A stretch of 64,000 bases of DNA from a virus (Duplodnaviria > Heunggongvirae > Uroviricota > Caudoviricetes), in the IMG/VR virus record IMGVR_UViG_3300010998_001290. One strand, given 5' to 3'. Shown one piece after another: positions 524 to 63,987 of this stretch (position 1 is its first letter; each line of letters begins with the position of its first letter). Both the position numbers and the translations under genes were made by a program. Under the pieces are notes generated by a model. The model worked only from the letters and a program-made list of their open reading frames with translations, ran no database searches and was not told the DNA's origin.

Positions 524-561
524 ATATACTATTGTTAAGTAAAATTTATTGACGAACGGAG
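524..561 (+). promoter_or_regulatory. promoter cassette: ATATACTA -10-like element plus downstream GACGAACGGAG box
   Basis: Follows a terminator-like T-tract and precedes gene 606. Confidence 0.55.
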
Positions 562-605
562 ACTTAAGGTGTTGAAGTTCGTATTATCGAAAGGATGTGT
601 ATATA

Positions 606-1541
606 GTGATTGTCGTAAAAGGAAATGTTGAATACATAGGAGCAGATGATGTAAAGCTCGGCGTTATTACTTTCCCAGAATGGGCAGAATATATTAGAGA
701 TGGCTGTACATTTGCCTTGACTCCGGCAGAAATGCACGAGGTCAAGTTGATAGATTTTGGCTCTGTTAAGTATATCGGTTCAAGATTCTATAACAAAAAC
801 CATCTGATGATAGGCGGCATGGATGCGCTGGAGAGAATATCGTTCTGCGAGATATTTGACAATCTCGAACGAGTTAATGCACCTGAGCTTGTGGAAATCA
901 ACGAAAATCAGTTTAAGGCGTGCAAAATGCTTGAAAGTGTGTCTATCCCAAAGGCACAGGTGATAGGACCTTGCGCTTTTGCATTATGCCCCAAGCTTAA
1001 GAATGTGACCTTTGGTAATATCCAAAGAATAATGTCAAGCGCATTTGACTCTTGCAGGTCACTCAAAACGATTGAACTTCCGGAAGACAGCGAGGTTATT
1101 ATCCAAACGCAAGCATTCGCAAGAACGGGTCTTGAAAAGGTTGATCTACATTCCTGTTCTCTGAGATCATCAGCATTTTTTGCTTGCAGTGACTTAAAAG
1201 AAGTCAAAATAGATGATTTATCTCGTGTTCCCGGAAATTCCTTTTCCTATTGCAATAATCTCAGCAGTATAACCTTACTCACGGCACCGAGAGAGTATAA
1301 CCTGCCGTACACAGGCGAATGCTGCGAATATGAGCTGCGGATTAGCGAAGATGCGTATATACTTCCGAGTGAACCTATGAAAACGGTATGTTACAACGGC
1401 ACGACGGGAGAATATGTACAGACAATACAGTTGTATAATAAAAAGGTATATGTGATGAAGGATGGCAGGTATGTAATGTCCGAACTCGGAGAAGCCTTTG
1501 AAATAAGCTTTGAACAGCTTAAAACGGAGCTCGGAGAGTAA
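606..1541 (+). CDS. BspA-type leucine-rich-repeat (LRR_5-like) protein, paralogue 1 (alternative GTG start 597)
   Basis: Repeated 'AF..C..L..V.LP' units. Conserved N-terminus (IVVKGNVEYIGADDV) and C-terminus (YVMKDGRYV). AAAGG RBS 10 nt upstream of GTG 606. Confidence 0.7.
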   Translation: MIVVKGNVEYIGADDVKLGVITFPEWAEYIRDGCTFALTPAEMHEVKLIDFGSVKYIGSRFYNKNHLMIGGMDALERISFCEIFDNLERVNAPELVEINENQFKACKMLESVSIPKAQVIGPCAFALCPKLKNVTFGNIQRIMSSAFDSCRSLKTIELPEDSEVIIQTQAFARTGLEKVDLHSCSLRSSAFFACSDLKEVKIDDLSRVPGNSFSYCNNLSSITLLTAPREYNLPYTGECCEYELRISEDAYILPSEPMKTVCYNGTTGEYVQTIQLYNKKVYVMKDGRYVMSELGEAFEISFEQLKTELGE

Positions 1542-1583
1542 TCATTCTCTTGATACCAACGAAAAATCAACACTTAAGCGGAA

Positions 1584-1611
1584 GGGGCACTCGGTTGCCC
1601 CTTTTGTTTTT
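1584..1611 (+). terminator. intrinsic terminator
   Basis: GGGGCAC-tcgg-TTGCCCC hairpin plus TTTTGTTTTT. Confidence 0.7.
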
Positions 1612-1624
1612 ATGCCCGAAATAG

Positions 1625-1660
1625 CATACTAATAATAGTATCATATCAAGATGAATGGAG
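1625..1660 (+). promoter_or_regulatory. promoter cassette: CATACTA plus GATGAATGGAG box
   Basis: Sits 14 nt after the terminator at 1584-1611, spacing 18 nt. Confidence 0.6.
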
Positions 1661-1713
1661 GTTCAGAGTGGTATTTAGTCAAAATATGAATAATATAGAA
1701 AGGTGTGTATGAA

Positions 1714-2907
1714 ATGATAATAGAAAATGGCGTTGTTATAAAAATCACAGATGCTGATGTAGCGTTTGATATGCAGCGCGAAGGATATGGAGTACTGAAC
1801 CTTCCTGATGAAGCGACAGTACTTAAGGCTGACGTTACCGGTATCTCACCGTCAATGAGGTCAAACATAAAGGAACTCAGAGGGAAAAACATTCAGTATA
1901 TAGAGGCTTTTACAGATCATTGCGGAGAAAAGTCGTCTTTGACGCCCACTTTTCCCGCTCTGGAGCTTTTCGATATGCCGAGCCTTAAAGAGATCCCAAA
2001 GGAGGCTTTTGTTCAGCATAATATGCTTAAAAAAGTAGACCTCCCAAGCGTTAAATATGTCAGGGAGATGGCTTTTGAGGATAGCAGTATCGAAACTGTC
2101 ATATTGCCTGAAGCAGTGACAATATACGAGTCTGCTTTTAACTTTTCGGATATCAGCTCTATATATGCAGATAAGGTCGAAATCATTGAAGAGCGGGCAT
2201 TTGACGAATGTAAGAAATTGGATAAGCTTCATATGCTTAATGTTCGGCTGATAGGGAAATACGCATTTCAGAATTGCAACAAACTTAGGCTTATATATTT
2301 CGCCAAAGTGACGAACATAGACGATGCTGCTTTTATGGGGTGTAAATCTCTTGAAGAAGCGAATCTTCCCTCTGTACAGTCCATTGGTGAATACGCTTTT
2401 TCTAACTGTAAAAAGTTGAGCAGGGTGCATTTAGGCGATGACCTTAAAGCTATTCAGTACATGGCATTTTACTCCTGCGCAATAACAAATCTAAAAATCG
2501 GAAAAGCTGCCATTGTAGAAGCAGAAGCTTTTGAAAACATACAGAAGGACGTGGATGTTTATTGCGATGTTCCGGAGCAAATCGATGGAGCATTCGGATT
2601 TTTCCCCAACGGGAGAAAGGTCAAAAATGTATATTTCGCGAAGAAATATACCGAAAGGCAAAAGCTTCCTTTCTTGACAAGTAACGAATGCAGTTATCTT
2701 GTATTTCCGAATAAGAGAATGAGAGCCCTTTCAGTGAATACTTCACAGGTCTTTGAGGTGGAGCAGGAGATTTCCTGTATAGACGGAAAAACCTTGTGGA
2801 TACTGCGTAACGGCTGTTATGCTGTTAAGGAGACATACGGCAAGGTGATAAAGTATTGTTCAGGCAAAGAAGAGCTTGAAAAGGCTTTGAATGCTCCGCC
2901 GTTTTGA
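1714..2907 (+). CDS. BspA-type LRR protein, paralogue 2
   Basis: 'MIIENGVVIKITDADV' N-terminus, many 'AF..C..L' repeats, C-terminal 'LWILRNGCYAV'. RBS AAAGG. Confidence 0.7.
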   Translation: MIIENGVVIKITDADVAFDMQREGYGVLNLPDEATVLKADVTGISPSMRSNIKELRGKNIQYIEAFTDHCGEKSSLTPTFPALELFDMPSLKEIPKEAFVQHNMLKKVDLPSVKYVREMAFEDSSIETVILPEAVTIYESAFNFSDISSIYADKVEIIEERAFDECKKLDKLHMLNVRLIGKYAFQNCNKLRLIYFAKVTNIDDAAFMGCKSLEEANLPSVQSIGEYAFSNCKKLSRVHLGDDLKAIQYMAFYSCAITNLKIGKAAIVEAEAFENIQKDVDVYCDVPEQIDGAFGFFPNGRKVKNVYFAKKYTERQKLPFLTSNECSYLVFPNKRMRALSVNTSQVFEVEQEISCIDGKTLWILRNGCYAVKETYGKVIKYCSGKEELEKALNAPPF

Positions 2908-2918
2908 TGGAGGTTAAT

Positions 2919-3833
2919 ATGATAATATACAATGGTTTAGTAAAAAGGATAGAAGCTCATGATTTCGTGGACAAAGAGATACGATTTCCGGACGAAGCTC
3001 GTCGTATATGCGAAGATGTTCAGATAAGCTTTGAAGTCCAGCTTTTATTTGAAACTGTAGAATACATTGATTTCAACAATATTGAGGGCATTGACAGGAA
3101 AATTGTTCTCAATAAGGTAAAGAAGATCGATGCACCTCAGCTTTATATTGTGTGGGAAGACCAATTCTCGTACTGTGAGAAGCTTATGGAAATCAATATT
3201 CCGAGAGTAGAAACGATCAAAAGGAGAGGGTTCTTTAACTGTCGCGCTTTAGAGAGCATCACGCTGTCTAATATAGCGAGGATTGATGAAGAAGCTTTCT
3301 ATTGCTGTGTTGCTCTTACAAAAGCAGAGCTTGGAGACAACATTAAGTTTGTTGGCACAAATGCTTTCAGAAATACGAATTTATCGTATATAGATCTGAA
3401 ACAGGCTGAAGAAGTAAGAACCGGTGCGTTTAAGAACTGTACTCATCTATTCCAAATCAGGGTAGCAAACCTGAATGTGCTGAAGAGTAAGGCTAATGTT
3501 CTTGAAGGATGTGAAGACCTCAGATGTATAACCTTAACTCAGGGCTCTGTCTCAGCTAAGAAGTATCCTTATACCAAAATAGGCTGTGAATACACCATTG
3601 AGAGCATAAAGGGAAACGAGCACATCAGGCTGCTATCGGGCAACAGTGCTGCCGACGTGTATCACATAAGCCAAAAGATAAGCGGGGAAAGCTTTGATGA
3701 TGAGGAATTTATGAGCGATATTTATGTTACGGACGGCGGTGATATGGTGGCTGTTAAGAAAAGTAAGACAACTGGATTTAAATATGTTTGTCGAGGAGAC
3801 ACTGCAAAAATCAGGCAGTTTTTAGAAGCGTAG
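2919..3833 (+). CDS. BspA-type LRR protein, paralogue 3
   Basis: GGAGG RBS 5 nt upstream. 'MIIYNGLVKRIEAHDF' N-terminus and LRR repeats. Confidence 0.7.
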   Translation: MIIYNGLVKRIEAHDFVDKEIRFPDEARRICEDVQISFEVQLLFETVEYIDFNNIEGIDRKIVLNKVKKIDAPQLYIVWEDQFSYCEKLMEINIPRVETIKRRGFFNCRALESITLSNIARIDEEAFYCCVALTKAELGDNIKFVGTNAFRNTNLSYIDLKQAEEVRTGAFKNCTHLFQIRVANLNVLKSKANVLEGCEDLRCITLTQGSVSAKKYPYTKIGCEYTIESIKGNEHIRLLSGNSAADVYHISQKISGESFDDEEFMSDIYVTDGGDMVAVKKSKTTGFKYVCRGDTAKIRQFLEA

Positions 3834-3842
3834 GAGGAATAT

Positions 3843-4784
3843 ATGGTCATAGATAACGGATGTGTAATCGATATAGATAAGACTGATATTATCGAAGGAG
3901 TCCTTACATTCCCAGCTGGAGCAAAGATGCTTGGGTCAAAATCTCAAATATTAGAAGTTTGCAACGAACGGGGCGAATTAACGCGATATTTGGACGGGAA
4001 AAAGTATATTTGTCGGAATTTGCAGGAAGAAAATACTGTAAAAAGATTTACCCCGTTTTTACCTGAGATAAAAGAAATAAATTTTTCTGGCATAGAGAAT
4101 ATAGCGCTCCCAATAGCGCGAATTGCTCCACGGATTCAAACAGTGCATGGAGAAAACATATTATCTATATGCGATTGTTGTTTTGAAGATTGTGAAAAAT
4201 TAAAGGCTATAGATCTTTCAAATGCAAATACGATAGGGAAATACGCTTTTGCTGGTGCAGGGCTTGAAATAGTACTTTTTGGAACATCGATAAAAAATAT
4301 AGACTTTGGTGCATTTTCTTATACAATGCTTGAATCCGTAAATATTCAAAACGCTAAAATAGCTACTCATGCATTTCGGGGCTGCGATTGCCTTCAAACG
4401 GTTTACATGAATTCAACAGATTTATGCGAAACTTGGTCTTTTTATCAATGTGAGGCAATAAATGAAATATATGTAAAAGAATACAATGTTTCGAATATAC
4501 CATATATAGATTCGGGGTATGAGTACAGCATATGTGAATGTAACGGGAATGGAACAATGCATAACATCATATGTGGAGACGATGAGGTCAGTGAAGAGAT
4601 AGTGTATGAATATGTTCAAAAAATGAAATGTCAGGGGGTTGACGGCAACTTATACATTTTGAAGGATGGAAGAATTATTCATATTTACCAGTATGAGACT
4701 TATGACGGAATTGAAAATAAGGTAAGTCCTGAGTTCAGCAGCATAGATGAGTTTAAAGATTATATGGATATGGAGGGAAGTTAA
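3843..4784 (+). CDS. BspA-type LRR protein, paralogue 4
   Basis: GGAGG RBS. 'MVIDNGCVIDIDKTDI' N-terminus, LRR repeats, C-terminal 'LYILKDGRIIHIY'. Confidence 0.7.
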   Translation: MVIDNGCVIDIDKTDIIEGVLTFPAGAKMLGSKSQILEVCNERGELTRYLDGKKYICRNLQEENTVKRFTPFLPEIKEINFSGIENIALPIARIAPRIQTVHGENILSICDCCFEDCEKLKAIDLSNANTIGKYAFAGAGLEIVLFGTSIKNIDFGAFSYTMLESVNIQNAKIATHAFRGCDCLQTVYMNSTDLCETWSFYQCEAINEIYVKEYNVSNIPYIDSGYEYSICECNGNGTMHNIICGDDEVSEEIVYEYVQKMKCQGVDGNLYILKDGRIIHIYQYETYDGIENKVSPEFSSIDEFKDYMDMEGS

Positions 4785-5731
4785 TGATTCTTTCAGGAAA
4801 AGTTTTGTACGGAATAAACGAAGATGATGTAAATGTGAAGGAAAAGACCCTTCGTATTGGCAACGGCGTTAAAGAGATGTCGGATAGGTGTAATGTCAAT
4901 ATAAGAAAAGAAATCAGGGAACAGATAAAAACCATTGACTTTAATGAACTTGTAGCAGTAGATCATTTGAGTGGATGTACTGTTCACGATGTTTTCCCGA
5001 ACGTAGAAGTCGTACTGATGCCTAAAGCAAAGACGGTATATGCTAATATGTTTGAGAAGTGTCAAAAGCTCAAGAAAGTAGACATGAAAAACGTAGAAAG
5101 AGTACACGAAGCGGCGTTTAAGGGCTGTACCAAACTACAACAAGTTCTTCTTCCTAACGTCATATTTATTGGGAAGGAAGCTTTTGCCGGTTGCGAACGA
5201 CTTGAAACTATCTCCTTAAGGAAAGAGAGAAAGGTAATCCAATACTTTGCGTTCAGCGAAACAGCTGTTGAGACTATCGATCTTGGAGATGCAAAAGTTG
5301 ATCTTGGCGCGTTTAAATGGTGTGGATATTTGCAATCGTTAAGTATAGACACTTTACGGGATTTCGACAGAAGAGCATTAGCAGAGTGTTATGCCTTCAA
5401 AGAGATTTTGGTCAGGGACAAGGAATATGCCTATATAGAAAAGGCACCATGTATAGCAAGAGGTAAGACGTATTCCCTTGTGTATGACGATGAAGAGTCT
5501 CCATTTGCGCCAGATGAAAAACATATGATATGTGGAGTCGAGAAATATGATCATGATCGCGTTTATCCCGTGTTTGAGTACATACAAGCAATAGATACAA
5601 AGTCTGTTAATTCCGGTACATTTTCCAGATTGTACGTTCTGAAAAACGGGAAATATATTGCAGTGTTCACAAACGGAAAGATAAGTCTTGTAAGCGATTC
5701 CGTATCATCGCTCGTTGAAGCAAAAGACTAA
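4784..5731 (+). CDS. BspA-type LRR protein, paralogue 5
   Basis: TAATG overlap with the previous gene. GGAGGG RBS. LRR repeats and C-terminal 'LYVLKNGKYIAVF'. Confidence 0.7.
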   Translation: MILSGKVLYGINEDDVNVKEKTLRIGNGVKEMSDRCNVNIRKEIREQIKTIDFNELVAVDHLSGCTVHDVFPNVEVVLMPKAKTVYANMFEKCQKLKKVDMKNVERVHEAAFKGCTKLQQVLLPNVIFIGKEAFAGCERLETISLRKERKVIQYFAFSETAVETIDLGDAKVDLGAFKWCGYLQSLSIDTLRDFDRRALAECYAFKEILVRDKEYAYIEKAPCIARGKTYSLVYDDEESPFAPDEKHMICGVEKYDHDRVYPVFEYIQAIDTKSVNSGTFSRLYVLKNGKYIAVFTNGKISLVSDSVSSLVEAKD

Positions 5732-5745
5732 AAATACCCAAAAGT

Positions 5746-5780
5746 AAGAGAGAGCAGCAATGCTCTCTTTTATTTTTTTG
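5746..5780 (+). terminator. intrinsic terminator
   Basis: AGAGAGC-agcaat-GCTCTCT hairpin plus a T-tract. Confidence 0.7.
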
Positions 5781-5786
5781 AAAAGA

Positions 5787-5836
5787 TGTGTACGAAAGAC
5801 AATAGTTTTTCTTTTTCCTTCTGCTTAATCATACTA
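5787..5836 (+). promoter_or_regulatory. promoter cassette: TGTGTACGAAAGACAATAGTTT upstream box, 21 nt, CATACTAATAGT
   Basis: Motif shared with four other sites. Follows the terminator at 5746-5780. Confidence 0.6.
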
Positions 5837-5867
5837 ATAGTGACACACTTAAGGAAGGGGGATAAAA

Positions 5868-6527
5868 GTGAAAATTGAAGTAAAGGAGTACCTCAGGTCA
5901 AGGTCAGAAAGCTATGAATACGCTGTGAGGCACGCCAGCAGGCTTAATCTGAACATTGCATTGGTCTTAAGTGCAGTTACAGGTGAATTTTACACACAGC
6001 ACGCTTCGTACATAGACTTGATACCGACAGAAGACATCGTTATATGTCAGTTCACCGAACACGAAGAGGCTTCCGAGGATGAAACACTTCCCGGAAAACT
6101 GCTCCTGAAAGCAGAAGGACTCATAGATACAGATGAGGTTGAGAAGAACCAGAAGAAGGGAAAGCTTATATATATGTATGAGTTTGAGCTTTATGGTTCG
6201 GGACGAATGACAGAAGCACAAACGAGTGGACTTGAAACGGTTGTAAGGTTTACCGGTCCTATCACACAGGTACAGCTTGATAACGCTTACAAAATCGCAA
6301 AAGATTATATGACTGCTCGCAAAACAAACGAAGCTGCTAAGCGTCTCATCTTCGATATTGAGGTAGTCAATCGACCGGGAAACGTCATAAAGCCGGATGA
6401 GGAGCGAGACTATTGCACTTGTCCCAATTGCGGTCATCAGCTTACAGGCAGCGAATATAGTCTGTTCGGTGAACACAACGGCAAAAACTTCTGTGAAAAC
6501 TGTGGGCAGAAGCTTGTTTGGACATAA
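5868..6527 (+). CDS. hypothetical protein with C-terminal CxxC..CxxC zinc ribbon
   Basis: GTG start after a GGAAGGGGG RBS. 'CTCPNCGHQ...CENCGQK' motif. Confidence 0.6.
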   Translation: MKIEVKEYLRSRSESYEYAVRHASRLNLNIALVLSAVTGEFYTQHASYIDLIPTEDIVICQFTEHEEASEDETLPGKLLLKAEGLIDTDEVEKNQKKGKLIYMYEFELYGSGRMTEAQTSGLETVVRFTGPITQVQLDNAYKIAKDYMTARKTNEAAKRLIFDIEVVNRPGNVIKPDEERDYCTCPNCGHQLTGSEYSLFGEHNGKNFCENCGQKLVWT

Positions 6528-6577
6528 GATTATACACATCCTTTCACTTAAGAACGAGCGTTTTCCTTCTGAACAAT

Positions 6578-6584
6578 CATACTA
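6578..6584 (+). promoter_or_regulatory. CATACTA -10-like promoter element
   Basis: 'caATCATACTAaatat' between genes. Confidence 0.45.
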
Positions 6585-6614
6585 AATATGACGGTTCTGA
6601 AGGAGGTGAGAAAG

Positions 6615-6989
6615 ATGCACGATTTATGTCACGAACTGGATCTGATATGCAAACACATCCCTTATATAAAGGGAGAAAACGAGAAGCATGAGAAAGCTAT
6701 AGTATTTAAGGTAGGAAAGATGATCGGCAAGGTCGAATTCTTGGAATCCGACTATGTCGAAGAAGCGTATGACAGACTTAAGGTGTCAATAATACACCCC
6801 GAAGTCGGGACTATTGACCATATTGAAATCGAATTCAGGTATATTCTTGACAGCGAATGTTACCTGAAAATTGATGAATTATCGGCTGACTGGCATACCA
6901 GTAGGAAGATTTGCAGAGAGTTATCGGAAGACGACTACAAGCTTATCGCCGAGGTTGCCTTGTCATATCTGAAGGAATTTGACTATTGA
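6615..6989 (+). CDS. hypothetical protein
   Basis: GAAGGAGG RBS 7 nt upstream. The track start at 6588 lies inside the promoter element. Confidence 0.6.
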   Translation: MHDLCHELDLICKHIPYIKGENEKHEKAIVFKVGKMIGKVEFLESDYVEEAYDRLKVSIIHPEVGTIDHIEIEFRYILDSECYLKIDELSADWHTSRKICRELSEDDYKLIAEVALSYLKEFDY

Positions 6990-7004
6990 TAATCAGGAGG
7001 AATA

Positions 7005-8753
7005 ATGATGATTAAGGAACTGTTAAAGAAGTATTCGTACGATGATGTATGCGCATCTATAATAAGGTATGTGTACCGAAATATGGAATGTGCGCCTAAT
7101 GCAAGCTCTGACTTTATGGCGGAACTCAAGAAGGGCAAGGATGAGATCGTAGAGTACTTCGAGGAGGAAAAGGTAGACCAGAGCATCCAGAATGTTCTGT
7201 CTATGTTTGAAGAGGTCGCCAGCGAGAGAAGCAGGGGTGTCGTATACACACCTTTCAAGGTTTCCAAGCTCATGTTTGATAAGATAGAGGACTATAATAC
7301 CGGCATCAAGTTTATGGATCCCTCCTGCGGCAGCGGCGCAATACTCGTTAATCTGGTGGATTATATCCATAACAAGTTTATGATTTCGCCTATCGACATC
7401 ATCAACAACAGCATTTACGGCATGGACAATGACTATTTCAGCACTAAGCATTGCAAGTTTCTTCTTGAACTGCTTTGCCTCAAGCTCGGATATCACGCTG
7501 ATGGGCTCAAGATGCACATAGTCAATAACAACAGTATGCTCGTTGATTGGGATACCCTCGGCGTAAGAAAGTTTGACTACATCTTCGGCAATCCGCCTTA
7601 TATCGCTTTAAGGGATATGGATAAGGAAGAGCGCGAGCAGTATGAGAAGCAGTATGAAGTCGCTAAGGGAACATACAATATGGCGCATCTGTTCCTTGAA
7701 AAGGCTATAAAATATGTTAAGCCTAACGGCACTATATCATTCCTTGTCATCAATAATCTTTTCACACACATCTCATCGAAACCGGTAAGAGAACTCATAA
7801 TGCGCACAGGCTATCTTCACGAGGTTATTGAGTTCAATAAGATAAGGTTGTTTGAGAATGCCGAGGTGCTTACCACGCTTATCACATTAAAGGCTGCGTC
7901 GCATACCAAATTCGGCTATGCGAGACCTGAAGCTCTTAATAAGATAGTTCTTGTACAGCTTCCGCTGTCGGAACTTAAGGCTGAAGAATGGGTGTTTGCG
8001 AACGCAAAACAGAAGGAATACCTTGAGCATATCAGGTCTTTTGATACTAAGCTTAAGCCCTATATGAGCGGTTGTATAGCAACTCTTGCCGATAAGGTGT
8101 TCATTCTTGACGATGACGGAAAGACAAGAAGCAACCCCAAGAGACAGAGAGCCATAAAAATCGAGGATGGTATAATCAAGGAAATGTATCGTCCTCGCAA
8201 TATGGAAGGTGAAAAGGCTAAGAAGCTGAAGGTACTGTTTCCGTATGACGAAGACTTTAACACGCTGAGTCTCGATGATATTAAAGAAAGGTTCCCTAAG
8301 GCTTATCAGTATCTTAAAAACAACGAGGAAAAGCTGAAGCAGAGAAGCTGGCAGGATCAGTGGTACGCGTTCGGCAGAAGACAGGGGCTTGCAGTGGAGC
8401 ATAAGGCTGTTCTATTCGGCTGCTATTCCAGAAAGCCGAGATTTATCGTTCCTGATGACGATACGGCACTTCTTCTTAGCGGCGCGTACATAAGCAGCAA
8501 CATACCGGTGAAGCCTGATGTGCTTGCGGTTATCCTGAATTCCGATGTAATGGCGTGGTATATTAAGAAGGTATCGTTCCCCATTTACGGAGACTATTAC
8601 TACTACGGCAAGAAGGTCGTGGGCGACTTCTCGATACCTCCGCTTACCGAGGAAGAGGAAAAGGCGCTGCTTTCTATGACGAAGAGCGAGGTTAACGAAT
8701 TCCTTATCAAGAAGTACGATATAGAGGGTATCGAACTCGAAGAAACGGCATAA
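7005..8753 (+). CDS. N6-adenine DNA methyltransferase (gamma-class, Eco57I/TaqI-like), orphan
   Basis: Motif I '[13 protein letters not shown]' and motif IV 'IFGNPPY'. AGGAGG RBS. 582 aa with a C-terminal target-recognition-like region and no nuclease domain. Confidence 0.85.
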
Positions 8754-8763
8754 GGAGGCTTTT

Positions 8764-9207
8764 ATGAGTACGGTATATATATACAGTGACGGCGCATGTT
8801 CGGGCAACCCCGGTCCCGGAGGATACGGGGTTCTGCTCCGGCAGAAAGACAAGGAACTTGAGCTTTCAGGCGGCGAACCGGAGACAACCAATAACAGGAT
8901 GGAGCTTATGGGCGTTATTACGGGGCTTGAAGCTCTCAAAAAGCCCTGCAAGGTAATCGTCCAGACTGACTCTAAGTATGTTGTTGACGGCATAATGAAG
9001 GGCTGGGCTAAGTCTTGGAAGAAGAATGGCTGGGTTAAAGGCGATAAGAAGCCTGCGCTCAACGCAGATCTATGGGACAGACTCCTAAACCTGCTTGAAA
9101 AACACGAGGTAGAGTTTAACTGGATCAAAGGTCATGCAGGGCATCCTGAGAACGAAAGATGTGACAAACTGGCTGTAGCGGCACGCAAGAAATATGTACA
9201 CAAGTAA
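8764..9207 (+). CDS. rnhA: ribonuclease HI
   Basis: '[14 protein letters not shown]', 'TNNRMEL', 'QTDSKYV', 'WKKNGW', '[14 protein letters not shown]' are the canonical RNase H catalytic motifs. AAGGAGG RBS. Confidence 0.9.
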
Positions 9208-9222
9208 GAGGAGGAAATACAT

Positions 9223-9942
9223 ATGAATGTAAAGCAGCTTATTGACAAATGTGACGTCACCCTTCTTACCGACCAGTATCTCAATATGAACCCTGTTCCT
9301 ATTGCGGAGAGGGAAGATGAGGCGAGAGCGTTCTTAGATTTCCTGACAAGGCTTAAGGAAATAAAACCGTCTGTATCTGAGAACTACATACTTGTGTATA
9401 AGGGTTATGACGGAGATAAAGAGTTCCTGAACGCCGCTATGTTCGAGGCATCCGACATTCGAGAAAAAGTACATGATGTGTACGAATTCGATAAGCTTTT
9501 ATTCCCTGAAGACCTTTCGGATGAAGGATTTGAGGGCTTAAGAGAAATATGTAACGACTTTTTACATAATAACTATGCCATTGACTTCATCGAATGGGAT
9601 AGAGTTCTCGGCTTCAATACTGACGAAGACAACATAAAGGAGTTCGGAGCTGAAGCTGTTGCAGTAGCTATCCTCACCGAAATGACCTTTGTTTCGTTCT
9701 ACGAAGAGGATATAAAAGCCAAAAGACAGGAGATCGATGATGCTTTATCGGAGGTCGAAGAGCTTTGTGCGTCATCTTTAGAAGAAAGTAAGCTCAAAGA
9801 ACATGATCTTTTCGAGTTTAAGGACAATCGGACAGAGGAAGAAAAAGAAGTTGACAGGAAAAAGGCGCTTAAGGAGTATGTTCTTACGACGATAAGTATG
9901 TATAAGGCGTTGAAGCCTGTACATAAAAGGCTTAACGGCTGA
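9223..9942 (+). CDS. hypothetical acidic protein
   Basis: GAGGAGG RBS. Continuous ORF with codon usage like its neighbours. Confidence 0.6.
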   Translation: MNVKQLIDKCDVTLLTDQYLNMNPVPIAEREDEARAFLDFLTRLKEIKPSVSENYILVYKGYDGDKEFLNAAMFEASDIREKVHDVYEFDKLLFPEDLSDEGFEGLREICNDFLHNNYAIDFIEWDRVLGFNTDEDNIKEFGAEAVAVAILTEMTFVSFYEEDIKAKRQEIDDALSEVEELCASSLEESKLKEHDLFEFKDNRTEEEKEVDRKKALKEYVLTTISMYKALKPVHKRLNG

Positions 9943-9993
9943 TATATCAGATAGCAGCCCAATGTCATTAAGTTAAGAAAAGGGGGATAAAAT

Positions 9994-10257
9994 ATGAAAA
10001 TATCAGAAGCAAAAGAGATAATAACAAGCCTTAAAAAATTATCGGTAAATTTAGAGAAATTACGCGCTTTATCAACAGGCAATATGGGGTCAATGGTAGG
10101 CGAAGTTAAGGCTCGTGAATGGTGCAAGAACATAGAAAGTATGGCAGATATATATAATACTCCACTCCCGCTTGTTTTTCAAGAAGCCAAAAATGTCGTT
10201 GATAATGAAATCAATAGACTGAATGATTTGATTGATAACACGGACATAAATCCTTAG
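9994..10257 (+). CDS. hypothetical small protein, flanked by 18-bp inverted repeats
   Basis: AAGGGGGA RBS. The stop codon lies inside the right inverted repeat. Confidence 0.55.
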   Translation: MKISEAKEIITSLKKLSVNLEKLRALSTGNMGSMVGEVKAREWCKNIESMADIYNTPLPLVFQEAKNVVDNEINRLNDLIDNTDINP

Positions 10258-10328
10258 CTTAATGACATTGTATAGCACCCGCCGGTTCACATGAACTGAC
10301 GGGGCTTTTTATTTTCAAAATAAAATAT

Positions 10329-10335
10329 CATACTA
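10329..10335 (+). promoter_or_regulatory. CATACTA -10-like promoter element
   Basis: 'atatCATACTAttatt' after a T-tract. Confidence 0.45.
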
Positions 10336-10388
10336 TTATTATACAACCTAAACGAAGGTTGCAAAATGTACGGTAAAGGAGCATTATA

Positions 10389-10955
10389 ATGTTTAAGAAG
10401 AACGAAATCAAGAAGGCTCTTCATACAATATGTAAGAGCGAAACAATCAGCAAATCTATTCTTTCCGGTAAAACAGACGCCGAACAGTCCGATGCGGCGT
10501 TTATCAAAGGATATTCGGCTAAGATGTACTCAGACGAACTTTACGAATTCCTTAACGATGAGGCAATATCAGAACTTAAGTGTATAGAGTTTGGCGACAC
10601 TGCTGACCTTGGTGTTCTCGGCGAATGTGTATCTCACACCAATACATCTGTTAATCTGAATACTGAAATGTATGGCAACAGTAACAGAGTAGAGCGCGTC
10701 TGCAAGATAGGAACATCGAGCAAGACGGGTAGTGGTGAAACTGAAGAGACCGACGCGTTCAGGGTACAGCAGGATGAAACGACTTACATTACCGAGAACG
10801 GCAATGTGCTGACAGTAAAGGAAATCACCTATATGAAGGGCAACAAGGCGCTTGTTACGGTAAGAATCCCCGATGCTGCCATCGCACCGTCCTTCAACTT
10901 GATAAGCGGGTTACTCTCGGCTGAAGACGCAGAAGCAGAAGAAGTATCAGATTGA
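10389..10955 (+). CDS. hypothetical protein
   Basis: AAAGGAG RBS. Preceded by a CATACTA promoter element. Confidence 0.6.
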   Translation: MFKKNEIKKALHTICKSETISKSILSGKTDAEQSDAAFIKGYSAKMYSDELYEFLNDEAISELKCIEFGDTADLGVLGECVSHTNTSVNLNTEMYGNSNRVERVCKIGTSSKTGSGETEETDAFRVQQDETTYITENGNVLTVKEITYMKGNKALVTVRIPDAAIAPSFNLISGLLSAEDAEAEEVSD

Positions 10956-11031
10956 GCCATTTGCCGGGGTCAATATAATCTTAATGACTAATGGAATTGA
11001 GAGTACGATAACACTTAAGTATCGGTAAGAC

Positions 11032-11120
11032 ATGGTTACAGCGGCAATAATGGTCGCGGGAATACCTGCGGCTGCGGCAGTGACGGCGTTTGAAAAGGAT
11101 TCCGGCAAATGTTCAATAGT
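11032..11120 (+). repeat. GC-rich ~90-nt non-coding element, copy 1 (homologous to 19505-19625), ending in the shared CCCCTC..GAGGGG terminator
   Basis: Blocks 'cggcaataatggtcgcgg', 'gcggcagtgacggcg', 'tttgaaaagga' align with the second copy. GC is well above the local average. Confidence 0.5.
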
Positions 11121-11146
11121 CCCCTCTTCGGAGGGGATTTTTGCTT
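11121..11146 (+). terminator. intrinsic terminator
   Basis: CCCCTC-ttcg-GAGGGG plus a T-tract. Confidence 0.7.
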
Positions 11147-11167
11147 TCCGATTTCCAAATAAACAAT

Positions 11168-11174
11168 CATACTA
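11168..11174 (+). promoter_or_regulatory. CATACTAATAGT promoter element
   Basis: After the terminator at 11121-11146. Confidence 0.55.
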
Positions 11175-11210
11175 ATAGTAAGCTTTTTAGAAAGGAAGGT
11201 TTTTAAAACT

Positions 11211-11951
11211 ATGAAAAAGCGTACAGTAGGCGCTCTTTTAGCGAGCGCTTTAATGGCAATAATGACAGTAAGCGGATGCTCAGGGCAGAGCTCGGATAGG
11301 ACTCCGACAGGAACTCTTGCATCTACGACAACAACCAAGGCTACAACAAAGGCGACGACAGAAGAAACGGAGGAAACAACCGTGGAAGTTGAAGAGACAG
11401 AGATCGAGACCGAAGCGACGATAGAGGAAGAAGAGGAAAGCGCAGAGCCTACCGAGAAGCAGGCGGAGCTTATTGCCTTCCTTATGGAAGATCTGGACGA
11501 GAACCCTAACTCAAAGGAAAATAAGACGGCAGAGCTTAAGGAGAGTGGCTGGACGGACGAAGATATTGAGTTCGCGTTTGATTATCTTCAGGTAGATTGG
11601 GGGTATGTAGCGTCTATCAAAATGTTCAGTCTTATGGCGGATACCGAAAATCTTTCCGCGCAGGCTGTAGTAAACGAACTCAGCGGGCTCGGCTTTACAA
11701 ACGAGGAAATCGAGACAGCAATCAACGATGATATGATTGACTGGCACGAACAGGCGTTCTTTGCGGCAACCTCACTTATAGAGGATGATATGTCAATGGA
11801 AGACCTTAAGAAGAAAATGGTCGAAGATTATCTGTTTACCGAAGAGGAAGCAGACTACGCAATCAAGACCCTTGAAGATTCTGATTTCAGTTTTGAGTAC
11901 GACGGCGACATAGAAATCGGGGATGTATTCTATCCCGAAGAAGAGGAATAA
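11211..11951 (+). CDS. acidic lipoprotein
   Basis: Signal peptide with lipobox 'TVSGC', Thr/Glu low-complexity linker. AAAGGAAGG RBS. Confidence 0.7.
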   Translation: MKKRTVGALLASALMAIMTVSGCSGQSSDRTPTGTLASTTTTKATTKATTEETEETTVEVEETEIETEATIEEEEESAEPTEKQAELIAFLMEDLDENPNSKENKTAELKESGWTDEDIEFAFDYLQVDWGYVASIKMFSLMADTENLSAQAVVNELSGLGFTNEEIETAINDDMIDWHEQAFFAATSLIEDDMSMEDLKKKMVEDYLFTEEEADYAIKTLEDSDFSFEYDGDIEIGDVFYPEEEE

Positions 11952-12003
11952 TTAACATTAAGCCTTCCGTTTGGAGGGCTTTTTGTTTTTGCAACTACTC
12001 TGT

Positions 12004-12010
12004 CATACTA
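12004..12010 (+). promoter_or_regulatory. extended -10-like TGtCATACTA promoter element followed by a ~165-nt leader
   Basis: 'gcaactactcTGtCATACTAtat' after a terminator. Confidence 0.55.
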
Positions 12011-13634: not shown

Positions 13635-13660
13635 GGCTTTTATCACCGACATATTACAAG

Positions 13661-13690: not shown

Positions 13691-13701
13691 AACTGCTCTG
13701 T

Positions 13702-54463: not shown

Positions 54464-54520
54464 CAGCATAATGCAAAGGACGTCCTGCGTGGGCGTCTTT
54501 TGTTTTTCTGCGCTAAATTC

Positions 54521-54556
54521 CATACTAATAATAAGGTATATTATTGACGAACGGAG
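54521..54556 (+). promoter_or_regulatory. CATACTA plus GACGAACGGAG cassette
   Basis: After the terminator at 54477-54508. Confidence 0.6.
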
Positions 54557-58305: not shown

Positions 58306-58337
58306 ACATCAAGAAGAGAGTGTCCGCATGGCACTCT
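58306..58337 (+). terminator. intrinsic terminator
   Basis: AGAGTG-tccgcatgg-CACTCT plus TTTTCTTTTTT. Confidence 0.65.
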
Positions 58338-58338
58338 T

Positions 58339-58389
58339 TTCTTTTTTCTGTGTACGAGAAGTAAAATCGTATTCAATTTCCGTCCGTGC
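58339..58389 (+). promoter_or_regulatory. TGTGTACGAGAAGTAAAATCGT (diverged upstream box), 22 nt, CATACTA
   Basis: After the terminator at 58306-58337. Confidence 0.5.
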
Positions 58390-58597
58390 AATCATACTAT
58401 CTATAGAAACGTAAGATAATTACTTGCATCGGGCTGGCTCGACAGCCTTGTAGTGACGTAGTGGCAGCTATACGCTGTTAACTCTCACTAAGGTAAATCC
58501 CGCAATAGTATTCCTGCGGGCGCTTATAGTAGTGCGAGACCGCACACCCGGAGTTATGATAAGGCGACATCGAATGTGAGATGAAATAGGAGGTTCT

Positions 58598-59137: not shown

Positions 59138-59208
59138 CAAAATATAGAGCCTACTCGATATATTTCGGGTGGGCTTTATATGATTTTTTGTTTTTCCTCC
59201 TACTCTTA

Positions 59209-59245
59209 CATACTAAATTGTAGATAGCTTTTCAGACGACTGGAG
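59209..59245 (+). promoter_or_regulatory. CATACTA plus GACGACTGGAG cassette upstream of recJ
   Basis: After the terminator at 59148-59196. Confidence 0.55.
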
Positions 59246-59280
59246 AAATTTGAGCTATTCAGAAGGGATGATAATAATCA

Positions 59281-61903: not shown

Positions 61904-61961
61904 GCTCATAAACGCAAAAGGACTCCGAAAGGAGCCCTTTTTGCTTTATCGTTTGAAAAAT

Positions 61962-61968
61962 CATACTA
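61962..61968 (+). promoter_or_regulatory. CATACTA -10-like promoter element
   Basis: After the terminator at 61917-61946. Confidence 0.5.
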
Positions 61969-61993
61969 ATATATTGAGAGGGGAGAGTGTGAA

Positions 61994-62800
61994 ATGTCCT
62001 ATAAAAAAGCATTATCAGCGGTTCTTATTGCAGCTGTATTGTGTCTTGGTTCCTGCTCCGAGGAAGAAGCGGCTCTTCAAAAGTATGTAGAGACACAGCC
62101 AAAGGAAACAACAGCGGCAATCACTGTTGAAACAGAAGTTCCTTTCAACGCATTGGGCGTGTATGTGGAAACAGAGGAAGAAGAACCGATTATTATAGAT
62201 TATGAATCATACAGAATGAGACCTACTCCGAATTGTATTAAGGTGTCTCATATCATCGATTACACACAGCAGGAAGGCTACGAGGGAACACAAAGGCAGG
62301 ACTGCAATTTTACTAATCTGTGTGTAAAGTTCAACGGCATAACGCTGAACTCTGCTACAGAGGAAGAGTTTGAAAGATTTATCCATTCGAGCGGATATTT
62401 TGTAAGATTTAAGGAAGATGCTGAGACCGGGATAAAAGAGTATGTACTTAAGTCCGGCACTGTCACTTTCTGCAACGGTATGCTCCAACATTTTGACGCT
62501 TTTGGCAATATCCAGATAAATGGGTATGCGATAGGCGACAGAATAGAGAGACTGAACAGTATAGGAAAGTTCAACTTCGAGGAAGATGGTCTTGAATATA
62601 TACTTTTGTTTGACCCTCTGAATAGCGCTACGATAAGGCTTGGCATCTCTGAGGGGGCTATATCGAGTATTGAATTCAATGTTGTCGCATCTGAAATCGA
62701 GAGGCTGTATAATTCTCTTGAAGATATCGGGTACGCTCCGATCATCACGATTTCAGAGCCAGAACCCCATCAGAATCCGACTGATAATACTTTACATTAA
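61994..62800 (+). CDS. lipoprotein
   Basis: Signal peptide with lipobox 'LGSC'. GGGGAGAG RBS. Confidence 0.65.
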   Translation: MSYKKALSAVLIAAVLCLGSCSEEEAALQKYVETQPKETTAAITVETEVPFNALGVYVETEEEEPIIIDYESYRMRPTPNCIKVSHIIDYTQQEGYEGTQRQDCNFTNLCVKFNGITLNSATEEEFERFIHSSGYFVRFKEDAETGIKEYVLKSGTVTFCNGMLQHFDAFGNIQINGYAIGDRIERLNSIGKFNFEEDGLEYILLFDPLNSATIRLGISEGAISSIEFNVVASEIERLYNSLEDIGYAPIITISEPEPHQNPTDNTLH

Positions 62801-63965
62801 CGGTATAAGTATTGGAACGACCAAAAGCGGATACAGTGACAGTAGCCCTACCCGGCTTTAACCCGTATACAACTCCGAATTCATCTATGGAAATAATGTC
62901 TGTATCTTTTGTGGAATACTTGACCTGTGCTCCACACTTATATTCGGTACTTGCCATTGAAGTGACGAATGTACACTCATTTACACTAATATTCTTCTTG
63001 TAACTGGTAAGTTCAAGCTTTTTAGATGAGCCTAAGGAGCCGCATTTGCCCTCTGAAGTCACATACATGAGAGCGTACTTGTCTATTCCGAACCAAGAGA
63101 GCGGGGCATTAAGGTTGGTCGTGCGTCCGCTGATATATTTAGGCTCAAGCGAGAAGGCAAAGTCCGAGTTAAGCTTTGCGAGCGTACTTACAGCATTTGT
63201 TGCAGCGTCATACACACGTATTTCCTTTTTCCAGTCGAAGTATAACTTACCGTTGTTATCATATACGGTCGATGATGGACACCATCCATCAAACTCGTAC
63301 ACAAGTGTCGCAGATTTCTTCTGGAAATCGGATGAAACGGTGTAGATGCCATCGGGAGTATATGCGTACCATTGTTTGTTGAATTCGAAGAACCTTATTC
63401 CTTTTGCGGATACATAAGGAGATTCGGCTTCAACTGTAGGAAGTTCTTTATTATAAGCGGCATTATCGCCGCCCCTTAAGAAATGTCCTCCATCACAGTC
63501 AATTTCATACCACTTTCCGTTTACATTGACCACATTTATGCTGTGATGGCTTATATATGAGCCATTTATGCCGGAGCCTGTGACAGATTTAGACTCGATT
63601 CCTACAGCATCACACACTTCGTTGAAGGTATCCGAGAAGTTATTACAGTCGCTGCAACCTCTGAAAAGGATCCCAAATGTGCCATTTTCGTTGCCGGTAT
63701 GTCTTCCTTGATTGCTTATATATGAGTAAATATAAGCGATTTTCTGCTCAACAGTCCATTCGGGATTGATATTGTTGGTTATCCGCTTTATTACTTCTTT
63801 GTTCACCATGTTCAGTATCGACTTGGACTGACCTATTGAATACTCGGACTTATAGCTTTCAAGCATCTGCTTGTCATAATTATAAGCACGAGCATTGACG
63901 GTGAGCGAGAAAGCGGCAAGGATGGATAAAATAACAGATATTACTTTTTTCATAAAGACCTCCAA
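62745..63965 (-). CDS. secreted transglutaminase-like cysteine-protease-domain protein with a C-terminal Big_2 Ig-like domain
   Basis: Signal peptide 'KKVISVILSILAAFSLTVNARA'. Transglutaminase core 'GCSDCNNFSDTF..CDAVGI...YISHHSINVVNVNGKWYEIDCD'. Big_2-like 'GLKPGRATVTVSAFG'. Its own CATACTA promoter is on the minus strand. Confidence 0.7.
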   Translation of the reverse strand: MEVFMKKVISVILSILAAFSLTVNARAYNYDKQMLESYKSEYSIGQSKSILNMVNKEVIKRITNNINPEWTVEQKIAYIYSYISNQGRHTGNENGTFGILFRGCSDCNNFSDTFNEVCDAVGIESKSVTGSGINGSYISHHSINVVNVNGKWYEIDCDGGHFLRGGDNAAYNKELPTVEAESPYVSAKGIRFFEFNKQWYAYTPDGIYTVSSDFQKKSATLVYEFDGWCPSSTVYDNNGKLYFDWKKEIRVYDAATNAVSTLAKLNSDFAFSLEPKYISGRTTNLNAPLSWFGIDKYALMYVTSEGKCGSLGSSKKLELTSYKKNISVNECTFVTSMASTEYKCGAQVKYSTKDTDIISIDEFGVVYGLKPGRATVTVSAFGRSNTYTVNVKYYQSDSDGVLALKS

Positions 63966-63980
63966 AATCTTCTTTATATT

Positions 63981-63987
63981 TAGTATG
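63981..63987 (-). promoter_or_regulatory. CATACTA promoter element on the minus strand, driving 62745..63965
   Basis: The reverse complement reads 'caATCATACTAaatat', then an RBS and the ATG. Confidence 0.55.

Follow-up and report, generated by a model that had tools for sequence, protein, structure and literature searches.

How transcription is stopped and restarted along a large, mostly one-strand genome is the question raised by a 64,000-nt stretch of the virus record IMGVR_UViG_3300010998_001290 (the window), in which the heptamer CATACTA recurs between intrinsic terminators and genes, followed in about half of the copies by an 11-nt box, GACGAAYGGAG. An earlier note on this DNA (the sequence-only reading) had counted 31 such cassettes, and our recount also gave 31, made up of 29 CATACTA on the plus strand, one TATACTA at 525, and one CATACTA on the minus strand. 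We consider it fairly probable that the cassettes are composites, joining a terminator, a promoter for a dedicated sigma factor, an RNA leader box, and a point of crossover between genomes. They are known kinds of elements in a new form, i.e., a lineage-wide noncanonical phage promoter, terminator-promoter cassettes mediating gene shuffling, and a structured leader resembling a Shine-Dalgarno sequence in half of the copies. The role in recombination and the wide distribution go beyond what had been noted before.

Cassettes are overrepresented, intergenic, and co-oriented with genes

CATACTA had 35 matches in the window, 30 of them on the plus strand, compared to 7.3 ± 2.7 (both strands) in dinucleotide-preserving shuffles, and none of 100 shuffles reached 35. 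All but one of the plus strand copies (29/30) were located in intergenic DNA or at gene edges, the copy at 19430 alone being intragenic. On the minus strand, the copy at 63981-63987 sits upstream of the sole minus strand gene (62745-63965), while the remaining four matches are intragenic and explained by chance. The box, searched as GAYGAHYGGAG, had 15 matches, with 14 on the plus strand, against 0.44 in shuffles; the fifteenth (62736, minus strand) is intragenic and not part of a cassette. All 14 plus strand box coordinates listed in the sequence-only reading were recovered exactly, and the spacing given there held for every one, the box always lying 17 to 21 nt 3' of an ATACTA on the plus strand (TATACTA for the box at 551, CATACTA for the others). 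Every real cassette was co-oriented with the gene downstream, including, as had been claimed, the minus strand copy at 63981, and the division of the promoters into box-plus and box-minus classes was likewise supported.

The proposal that transcription units are bounded by a terminator and then CATACTA agreed with what we found. An intrinsic terminator, with a hairpin (ΔG of about -9 to -22 kcal/mol) and a T-tract, lies upstream in 26/30 plus strand CATACTA copies. From its end to CATACTA there are 16 to 29 nt in 20 copies (hairpin ΔG -9 to -20 kcal/mol), about 34 nt at 59209, and 48 to 63 nt in five more, which have an inserted module between the two. Terminator-like hits with a stem of at least 9 pairs numbered eight (seven distinct sites) in window 1-20000, all on the plus strand. 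Aligned on CATACTA, the window copies gave the consensus gtTTTTGTTTTTcc.t.t..tCtaT CATACTA aTa.TA, with the T-tract fixed at -36 to -26. This tract keeps its position (as TTTTCC) even in six copies whose terminator lies further upstream, and because its distance from CATACTA is fixed, we regard it as part of the conserved module. A third module, GTGTACGAAAGACA, lies 42 to 43 nt 5' of CATACTA in six window copies (the GTGTACGA class); it is known from this phage only, with two further copies just beyond the window.

CATACT fits a -10 element with C at -12

With high confidence, CATACTA is best read as a putative -10 element with C at -12 and without a sigma-A -35, as the sequence-only reading, which noted a weak or absent -35, had proposed. 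Alignment, start-codon distances, and a promoter scan all point this way. A sharp minimum of 18 nt separates CATACTA from the first real open reading frame (ORF), measured to its start codon at 137 non-redundant sites in the window and elsewhere, and in the shortest leaders the ribosome site begins 5 to 7 nt past CATACTA; together, this fits a -10 with the start about 6 nt after CATACTA and excludes a -35 role. Hexamer positions 2 (A) and 6 (T) are invariant. The first position, at -12, is C in 29/31 copies, and T is tolerated there (at 525, and at 12920 in locus L156); TG occurs at -15/-14 in six window copies. No TTGACA-like element was found at 16 to 18 nt in the window copies, in which the T-tract fills the -35 position, and the cassettes do not show the features of sigma-A promoters (T at -12, TTGACA at 17 ± 1 nt or extended TG). 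Matches of the sigma-70 type were at chance level in window 1-20000 (46 versus 39.8 ± 6.7).

Two other alignments were rejected. CATACTA as a -35, or TAGNAT as the true -10, is ruled out by the 18-nt start-codon limit and by the unconserved last T of TAGNAT, and TACTAA/TACTAT as the -10 is ruled out since approximately 60% of the window copies would then carry A at -7. The "single canonical sigma-70 promoter" that had been placed at 25841 is real (25841-25870, plus strand, TTGACA-18-TATACT) and belongs to no cassette, although "single" is true of the perfect -35 only, given that sigma-70-like matches are at chance. As the sole promoter with a perfect TTGACA -35, it drives a 121-aa ORF without a family match (25841-26252), which could be an early regulator.

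In the mechanism that we propose, the intrinsic terminator of a cassette would first end the upstream transcription unit. The noncanonical promoter, composed of the T-tract at about -36 to -26, CATACT at -12 to -7, and A at -6, would then restart transcription, with the start site probably about 6 nt past the motif, where the predicted +1 is usually the purine of TAG or TATG.

A dedicated sigma factor is the favored reader of the promoter

The promoter would most likely be read by the host core RNA polymerase with a dedicated sigma that is probably phage-encoded. Our confidence in the identity of this sigma is low, and host sigma-A, with or without a phage cofactor, ranks second; of the "phage-directed sigma or appropriator" suggested earlier, the former is therefore the favored reading and sigma-A with an appropriator comes after it. 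Genes of the sigma-70 family were present in three cassette-bearing loci, encoding proteins of 277 aa (L131/L156, behind a CATACTA promoter), 255 aa (L055, behind a sigma-A-like TTGCGC-17-TAGAAT), and 297 aa (L049). All three scored below every curated family cut-off except that of the generic sigma-70 superfamily model, with their best scores against RpoD-type and not sporulation models. At the positions of Escherichia coli sigma-70 Q437 and T440, which we take to be the region 2.4 residues touching -12, the L131 and L055 sigmas have K/R and R/M. Relatives of the L131 sigma retrieved in our search were all from the same phage species. The L055 sigma had no relatives in IMG/VR; among its distant relatives (≤35% identity) from cultured or annotated phages, one belongs to a phage that lacks the motif. 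A link of the promoter to one sigma family was rejected, the three sigmas being too divergent to form a family.

Two further observations concern these genes. L050:483-1703 encodes a 406-aa protein with sigma-70 region 4 and an RNA polymerase alpha C-terminal domain, and the box-plus cassette of L050 is identical in sequence to that of the 32-35% GC phage encoding the 277-aa sigma. In the 33% GC phage (L156), two divergent CATACTA promoters flank the sigma gene.

Four points weigh against a dedicated phage sigma at this promoter. First, the L131/L156, L055, and L049 sigmas are only 25-28% identical to each other while the motif is common to phages of 31-55% GC, which makes a single conserved host factor a reasonable alternative. 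Second, since the L131/L156 sigma gene itself lies behind a CATACTA promoter, either bootstrapping would be needed or the host enzyme reads the motif. Third, no sigma gene was found in the window or its readable flanks (approximately 6 kb on the upstream and 7 kb on the downstream side); neither a sigma nor an RNA polymerase gene was detected when about 95 window ORFs were scanned against Pfam, and tblastn with approximate sigma query sequences found none in the window or flanks. Fourth, the promoters and their start site are themselves predicted from sequence alone.

The first two of these points are also arguments for host sigma-A as the reader of early promoters, either directly or with a phage appropriator, the T-tract near -30 then being a cofactor site or UP-like element; in T4, AsiA/MotA appropriation replaces -35 recognition in this manner. 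A conserved host factor is the easiest account of a motif shared so widely among phages with such different sigmas. Sigma-A would also fit the retained A at -11 and T at -7, the TG in six copies, the tolerance of T at -12, and a region that resembles early or accessory genes (methyltransferases, Lar, and paralogous leucine-rich repeat [LRR] proteins). However, drift under sigma-A should favor T at -12, where C is nearly constant, and neither a TTGACA-like -35 at 16 to 18 nt nor an excess of sigma-70-type matches was seen. Moreover, canonical promoters of the TTGACA/TATAAT type form a separate, coexisting class (25841, locus L082, and the L055 sigma gene). We regard recognition by sigma-A as possible but doubtful.

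A -10 starting with CATA is typical of all four sporulation sigmas, and CATACTA is the sigma-G -10 consensus of Bacillus subtilis, to which the CATACTA copies are identical. If the promoters were read by a sporulation sigma, either the host's own (G, F, or K type) or a phage copy, these genes would depend on sporulating cells for their expression. The motif precedes small non-phage-like genes, such as that of a DUF2196 protein, in a Hydrogeniiclostridium chromosome. Spore_Cse60 is matched weakly (E = 1e-4) by one window ORF, and phage-encoded homologues of sporulation sigmas exist (PMC9429907). Nevertheless, the GnATA position, 17 to 18 nt upstream, is occupied by the T-tract (TTTTG/TTTGT in the window and T-rich at unselected sites elsewhere), with no ATATT or AC. 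In many phages the motif drives genes for SSB, polymerase, primase, and helicase, ill-suited to forespore-only expression, and the cassette-adjacent sigmas score best against RpoD-type models. A sporulation sigma is an unlikely reader, and we give the proposal very little weight; the mother-cell type named in the sequence-only reading fares no better, the heptamer being the forespore sigma-G -10 instead, with a T-tract at the -35 position and phage replication genes downstream.

The box as a probable RNA leader element

Half of the cassettes would add a leader with GACGAAYGGAG at about +13 to +27. We hold with moderate confidence that the box acts at the RNA level, as a Shine-Dalgarno-like sequence displayed near the 5' end, in about 10/17 copies in the loop of a predicted hairpin formed by unconserved flanks. 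Its likeliest role would be that of a 5' leader module that, by binding either a 30S subunit or an RNA-binding regulator, governs how stable or how well translated this class of mRNA is. The box core is GGAG, and 7/8 positions of GAAYGGAG agree with the extended Shine-Dalgarno sequence GAAAGGAG. In relatives, the start codon of a long gene lies 6 to 11 nt after the box, which is there a plain ribosome site. In contrast, the real gene start in 15/16 copies here is 35 to 68 nt downstream of the box, and the gene's own ribosome site lies 23 to 57 nt from the box GGA in 15/16 copies and 106 nt in the other. Between the window contig (L021) and its relative L022, the box is intact although its flanks have changed.

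When the leaders were folded with GAAYGGA held unpaired, an enclosing helix was found in approximately 10/17, with a mean z of -1.8 versus shuffled flanks (p = 0.006). In a fixed register of 16 pairs from C3:G11 outwards, 59.2% of cells were paired (shuffles, 53.5 ± 2.2; slid controls, 41-47.5%), and the covariation score was 0.312 versus 0.218 ± 0.029, a value that none of 500 shuffles reached (slid controls, ≤0.221). Thus, of the AT-rich, unconserved spacer described earlier, the lack of conservation holds for the sequence, but the flanks are self-complementary around the box in about half of the copies. General accessibility of the box did not differ from shuffled-flank controls (unpaired probability 0.52 versus 0.50), only the enclosing-helix test being significant, and the hairpin cannot fix the 5' end, as extra upstream sequence adds long-range pairs to the fold.

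Other results count against a structured leader element. A clear hairpin was limited to about 10/17 copies and the fixed-register signal was modest; in four copies, complementarity extends 2 to 6 nt upstream of the predicted +1; and at other loci, where approximately 10% of unselected promoters have a box-like sequence, a hairpin around the box was not significant. Furthermore, start codons 4 to 10 nt after the box were enriched (14/17 versus 6.4 expected, p < 0.0005). They opened ORFs of only 2 to 39 codons, and could be real mini-ORFs or could follow from base pairing with a 5' CAU that is conserved.

Three other roles for the box were discarded: a sigma-H or sigma-D -10 (no matching -35), a restriction-modification recognition site (its strict position and orientation speak against this), and pairing with the genuine ribosome site or with loops of the candidate noncoding RNAs described below (no complementarity).

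A more specific version of RNA-level control would make the hairpin a high-affinity site for a translational regulator, of the CsrA/RsmA type or another RNA-binding kind, which bridges the loop GGA and the ribosome-site GGA and represses the box-plus genes jointly. The loop GAAUGGA or GAACGGA contains A-N-GGA, closed by C3:G11, and the second GGA at 23 to 57 nt is within the 10 to 63 nt range of two-site CsrA binding. In the hag leader of B. subtilis, one site likewise lies in a 5' hairpin and another covers the ribosome site. On the other hand, no CsrA-family match was found among the window ORFs scanned, GGA is at the 3' edge of the 7-nt loop and not at its center, and the hairpin is weak or absent in approximately 7/17 copies. 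Such a regulator, which overlaps with the leader-element reading rather than excluding it, seems to us rather unlikely.

As proposed in the sequence-only reading, the box, at +12 to +22, could instead be the DNA operator of a phage repressor, e.g., the XRE protein encoded at 17462-17707, and divide the promoters into early and middle temporal classes. A fixed position relative to the promoter, strict orientation, conservation between close relatives despite changed flanks, and the HTH_3 protein encoded in the window would all be compatible with this. However, the box is asymmetric and without a half-site repeat, GGAG, a ribosome-site sequence, is its conserved core, it serves as a ribosome site in relatives, and its flanks co-vary to keep a hairpin, pointing to RNA structure over protein-DNA contact. 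The operator, together with its temporal classes, is therefore improbable and the least supported reading of the box, and the RNA leader element, which the sequence-only reading had offered as its other option, is the better of the two.

It is very unlikely, though conceivable, that a host sporulation sigma or a phage-encoded mimic of it after all reads these forespore-type CATACTA promoters, here and across a whole lineage of gut Firmicutes phages, and so wires phage replication and accessory expression into host sporulation, with the box-plus mRNAs as a second regulon under post-transcriptional control via the A-N-GGA loop hairpin.

Cassettes coincide with indel junctions between close relatives

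In the proposed mechanism, the cassettes would also serve as crossover points for the gain and loss of gene blocks. Compared to the window contig, relative L022 (Logan SRR27755830, 89-93% identical) has three indels, two of which are bounded exactly by cassettes. Window 523-1596, with one LRR gene, is missing from L022, and the junction is a 26-nt stretch common to the cassettes at 525 and 1625. Window 12010-14274, with two genes, is also missing, and here the junction is a 42-nt stretch common to the cassettes at 12004 and 14268. In the third indel, an IS605/TnpB element is inserted in L022 approximately 10 nt upstream of the CATACTA at 11168 (L022:17451-18569, minus strand). About 40 to 100 nt of similar sequence are common to cassettes, and this similarity would make them crossover points. 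A second IS605-family TnpB gene was observed just beyond the window (L001:15137-16585, about window 64417-65865), behind a GTGTACGA-class cassette.

Other gut and rumen phage contigs share the promoter grammar

Public genome and metagenome collections were scanned for the T-tract, CATACTA, and the box in the correct order. Among genomes, four sites were found in one 458-kb contig binned as a metagenome-assembled genome (MAG) of Eubacteriales, along with single sites in Ruminococcus, Blautia, Hydrogeniiclostridium, and a Selenomonadales MAG. The metagenomes gave at least 120 matches; among the matches listed, most were from gut, rumen, and similar samples, with 31-55% GC. CATACTA sites at these loci that fell outside the search pattern had the same layout (T-tract, t.T CATACTA T.TA[TG][GA]A, and a ribosome site), and several loci had 5 to 6 sites per 14 kb. 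The search for the motif pair in other phage genomes, suggested in the sequence-only reading, thus returned the same promoter grammar in many gut and rumen phage contigs, and by extrapolation from 31 in the 64-kb window, this 300-kb phage probably has 100 or more such promoters. A motif scan of IMG/VR gave only one other phage species and hits expected by chance. A control fecal phage with only a distantly related sigma had no excess of CATACTA.

Genes behind the promoters elsewhere encode SSB, a PolC-like protein with a PHP domain, primase, a RecD/Dda-type helicase, an SbcC-like ATPase, a RecJ-like exonuclease, DNA methyltransferases, and nucleotide kinases. The RecJ proteins of the window and of L144, each behind a CATACTA promoter, are 37% identical, the corresponding figure for the L156 and L099 helicases being 31%. 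Homologous RecJ and helicase genes behind such promoters suggest that a deep phage lineage shares both replication genes and promoter grammar. We give next to no credence to the idea that the motifs are functionless remnants of one intergenic sequence duplicated along with genes: some neighboring cassettes are indeed paralogous (before the tandem LRR genes, and 16021 with 20732), but the conserved blocks are split by unconserved spacers of variable length, the genes downstream are unrelated, and a grammar shared by phages with proteins only 31-37% identical already contradicts it.

Some of these loci had features of their own. At L156:9746-10000 and other L156/L039/L105 sites (33% GC phage), the motif TTATACAGAAAAAT lies about 21 nt 5' of several CATACTA/TATACTA promoters, a parallel to GTGTACGAAAGACA. 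L082:9588-9680 has two tandem copies of the perfect palindrome CATACTATGTATG immediately 5' of a canonical TTGACA-17-TATAAT, with a related copy 1 kb away (10598), and in this phage the motif resembles a set of operators for a genetic switch more than it does a promoter. In the isolate chromosome of Hydrogeniiclostridium mannosilyticum (L029, NZ_QLYR01000001.1), four minus strand CATACTA promoter-like sites (7816, 6619, 6371, and 4875) lie within 3 kb. They precede small non-phage-like genes, including that of the DUF2196 protein, and at one of them the box precedes a mini-ORF of 8 codons, a layout also seen in the window.

Positions of the individual cassettes

All cassettes described here are on the plus strand except the last. 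In the first box-plus cassette (476-561), a terminator at 476-507 precedes TATACTA at 525-531, with its T at -12, and the box at 551-561. The next (1578-1660; terminator 1578-1607, CATACTA 1625-1631, box 1650-1660) has the L022 indel junction in its T-tract. Those with the box in a predicted hairpin loop are located at 15943-16074, a GTGTACGA-class copy (terminator 15943-15972, GTGTACGA at 15979, CATACTA 16021-16027, box 16048-16058; ΔG -11.7); at 19030-19126 (terminator 19030-19050, CATACTA 19073-19079, box 19100-19110; ΔG -16.5); at 20671-20786 (terminator 20671-20713, CATACTA 20732-20738, box 20760-20770; ΔG -12.4); and at 28650-28748 (terminator 28650-28673, CATACTA 28697-28703, box 28722-28732; ΔG -8.2). 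The same arrangement recurs at 35135-35210 (T-tract, CATACTA 35158-35164, box 35184-35194; ΔG -8.6), 43668-43770 (terminator 43668-43698, CATACTA 43716-43722, box 43744-43754; ΔG -10.3), and 47596-47694 (terminator 47596-47627, CATACTA 47644-47650, box 47668-47678; ΔG -11.9).

Further box-plus cassettes lie at 32907-32997 (terminator 32907-32939, TGTCATACTA including CATACTA 32961-32967, box 32987-32997), at 37816-37937 (terminator 37816-37837, T-tract, TGTCATACTA including CATACTA 37901-37907, box 37927-37937), at 48188-48284 (terminator 48188-48211, CATACTA 48233-48239, box 48258-48268), and at 54473-54556 (terminator 54473-54503, CATACTA 54521-54527, box 54546-54556). The cassette before the RecJ-like gene, at 59150-59261, has a hairpin at about 59150-59181, a T-tract, CATACTA at 59209-59215, and the box at 59235-59245.

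Box-minus cassettes with a terminator and CATACTA were found at 10274-10335 (terminator 10274-10306, CATACTA 10329-10335), 13656-13708 (13656-13684 and 13702-13708), 18768-18826 (18768-18795 and 18814-18820), 25073-25128 (25073-25103 and 25122-25128), and 26655-26703 (26655-26672 and 26691-26697), as well as at 61919-61968 (61919-61938 and 61962-61968), with a start codon 25 nt past the motif. For the cassette at 11119-11180 (terminator 11119-11138, CATACTA 11168-11174), L022 has the IS605/TnpB about 10 nt upstream of the -10. Those at 11955-12017 (terminator 11955-11986, TGTCATACTA including CATACTA 12004-12010) and 14221-14282 (terminator 14221-14251, CATACTA 14268-14274) contain the left (11976-12017) and right (14241-14282) crossover zones of the 2.27-kb indel. 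The copy at 6555-6590 is without an adjacent hairpin and has TTTTCC and CATACTA at 6578-6584; that at 32835-32864 has TTTTTCC and CATACTA at 32858-32864, with the terminator at 32907-32939 about 50 nt further on.

The GTGTACGA class also includes box-minus cassettes at 5742-5843 (terminator 5742-5775, GTGTACGAAAGACA 5788-5801, CATACTA 5830-5836, within AATCATACTAATAGT) and 31082-31173 (terminator 31082-31103, GTGTACGA at 31125, CATACTA 31167-31173), together with a degenerate box-minus member at 25694-25743 (GTGTACGA 25694-25701, CATACTA 25737-25743). Two more lie upstream of candidate noncoding RNAs, namely 33539-33642 (terminator 33539-33575, GTGTACGA at 33594, CATACTA 33636-33642) and 58311-58399 (terminator 58311-58343, GTGTACGA at 58350, CATACTA 58393-58399). 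The minus strand cassette, 63966-64000, runs off the window end, and its CATACTA (63981-63987) is followed by GGAGG and the ATG of gene 62745-63965.

Genomic setting and candidate small RNAs

The window corresponds to about positions 20,380-84,379 of the 301,622-bp contig Ga0139362_1000266 (JGI metagenome 3300011008). Megablast of 20- to 24-kb pieces against annotated phage and plasmid collections found no close relatives. Apart from the gene at 62745-63965, coding in the window is almost wholly on one strand. Genes in the window include an array of BspA-type LRR paralogues, N6 and DUF4942 methyltransferases, RNase H, a DnaG-type primase, a RecJ-like exonuclease (PHROG 2484), Lar, YopX, a phage ProQ-like domain, and the XRE regulator; many ORFs lack any family match, and most cassette-flanked genes had no Pfam or PHROG match. 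The LRR_5 array comprises at least 14 tandem genes of approximately 310 aa each (window 597-5731 and 34426-35130, plus L021:1-6158 upstream of the window), most of which have their own box-plus cassette, and the copy number differs in L022. GC skew was positive across window 1-64000 (0.08-0.19) with a monotonic cumulative curve, and the plus strand is purine-rich (A 32%, G 24%), which fits one-directional transcription and replication across the whole window. The contig looks like a jumbo phage with a large, mostly one-strand genome, probably of a gut Firmicutes host, and we read the window as its early or accessory plus replication part, a megaplasmid being a conceivable alternative.

No Rfam families or tRNAs were matched in the window. 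Three paralogous structured RNA candidates of approximately 120 nt were found at window 33654-33775 and 58430-58552 and at L001:19905-20062 (about 69185-69342, outside the window), each directly behind a GTGTACGA-class CATACTA promoter. RNAalifold gave four helices with 30 pairs for the three, 14 of these with compensatory changes, and the conserved loops were TAACTCTC..TAAGGT, ATAGTATTCC, and GTGCGAGA; compared to Rfam, they had no match even at E ≤ 1. Since the terminator at 32907-32939 follows the promoter there by about 50 nt with no ORF between, window 32858-32945 may also hold a small RNA gene, of approximately 80 nt.

Implications and comparison with known systems

If the composite reading is true, the cassettes offer a ready map of promoters and transcription units in Firmicutes phages of gut and rumen that form a deep, uncultured lineage, some with genomes of 300-460 kb; we know of no promoter consensus for this lineage. 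The cassettes would point to a phage or host sigma with a preference for C at -12 and for a T-tract where the -35 would lie, and the box hairpin, with at least 17 copies in one genome, could mark a class of phage mRNA for stabilization or translational control. Cassette-mediated gene shuffling, so far described for T4-type phages of Gram-negative hosts, would also shape a Gram-positive jumbo phage. Practically, the motifs are good keys in searches for related phages and for operon boundaries in metagenomes.

Among known promoters, those of sporulation sigmas (CATACTA for sigma-G, CATA... for sigma-E and sigma-K) are alike in having C first in the -10, in the case of sigma-G with the same 7-mer. 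They differ in having a -35; the cassettes are without a matching one, and drive phage replication and accessory genes, not spore genes. At the RNA level, CsrA/RsmA sites and the GGAG targets of T4 RegB have GGA or GGAG in a 5'-proximal hairpin loop, as predicted for about 10/17 box copies, with a second GGA at the ribosome site, and a sequence-defined subset of phage mRNAs could here be controlled post-transcriptionally in a similar manner, but no homologue was seen in the window and the position of GGA in the loop is atypical.

The box also resembles stabilizers of mRNA 5' ends. STAB-SD was reportedly described by Agaisse and Lereclus in 1996, and the polypurine element of phage SP82 early RNA is said to go back to Hue et al. 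in 1995. Both, together with 5'-terminal stem-loops, are among the Firmicutes 5' stabilizers for which PMC3997798 gives references. Like these, the box lies near the 5' end of the predicted phage transcripts in combination with a predicted 5' hairpin, and as in STAB-SD, it has a GGAG core with the genuine ribosome site 23 to 57 nt further on in 15/16 copies. Unlike these, it is a conserved 11-nt element with at least 17 copies per genome, known here from predicted transcripts, and includes three conserved bases, GAC, that 16S pairing leaves unexplained. Start-associated sequences of Cluster K mycobacteriophages are asymmetric 11- to 13-nt repeats located 3 to 7 nt from the start codon (PMC3203893). 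They share with the box a Shine-Dalgarno core plus positions that cannot pair with 16S rRNA, a single orientation, and a place before non-structural genes, whereas the box is of unrelated sequence, lies 35 to 68 nt upstream of the real start in 15/16 copies, and is tied to a promoter at 17 to 21 nt (PMC3203893).

Phage-sigma-dependent promoter classes such as gp28 and gp33/34 of phage SPO1 (PMC13401047) are comparable in that a phage-specific consensus unlike that of host sigma-A is used for DNA-metabolism genes; sigma-70-family genes in phages with the CATACTA motif, one of them behind a sigma-A-like promoter, add to the likeness. The SPO1 middle and late consensus is unrelated to CATACTA, and the link between sigma and motif is here one of co-occurrence only.

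The closest parallel for the cassette as a whole is the promoter-early stem-loop (PeSL), a mobile regulatory cassette of T4-type phages with cassette-bounded indels (PMC2839356, PMC4122927). No sequence similarity of the cassettes to PeSLs or T4-type phages was found, and because of this lack of homology we regard them as an analogue of PeSLs and not as a member. Both are small units of terminator stem-loop and promoter (here with hairpin and T-tract in 26/30 copies), with a Shine-Dalgarno sequence at the end of each unit. Both occur in tens of copies in variable, ORFan-rich parts of a large phage genome (here 31 in 64 kb) and bound indels between close relatives (here two). However, PeSLs are homologous among T4-type phages and their early promoters have a strong sigma-70 consensus, while the cassettes have a CATACT -10 without a sigma-A -35. 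The stem-loop of the cassettes, in a phage of a Gram-positive host, is always upstream, with its T-tract doubling as an upstream promoter element, and half of the copies carry a structured leader.

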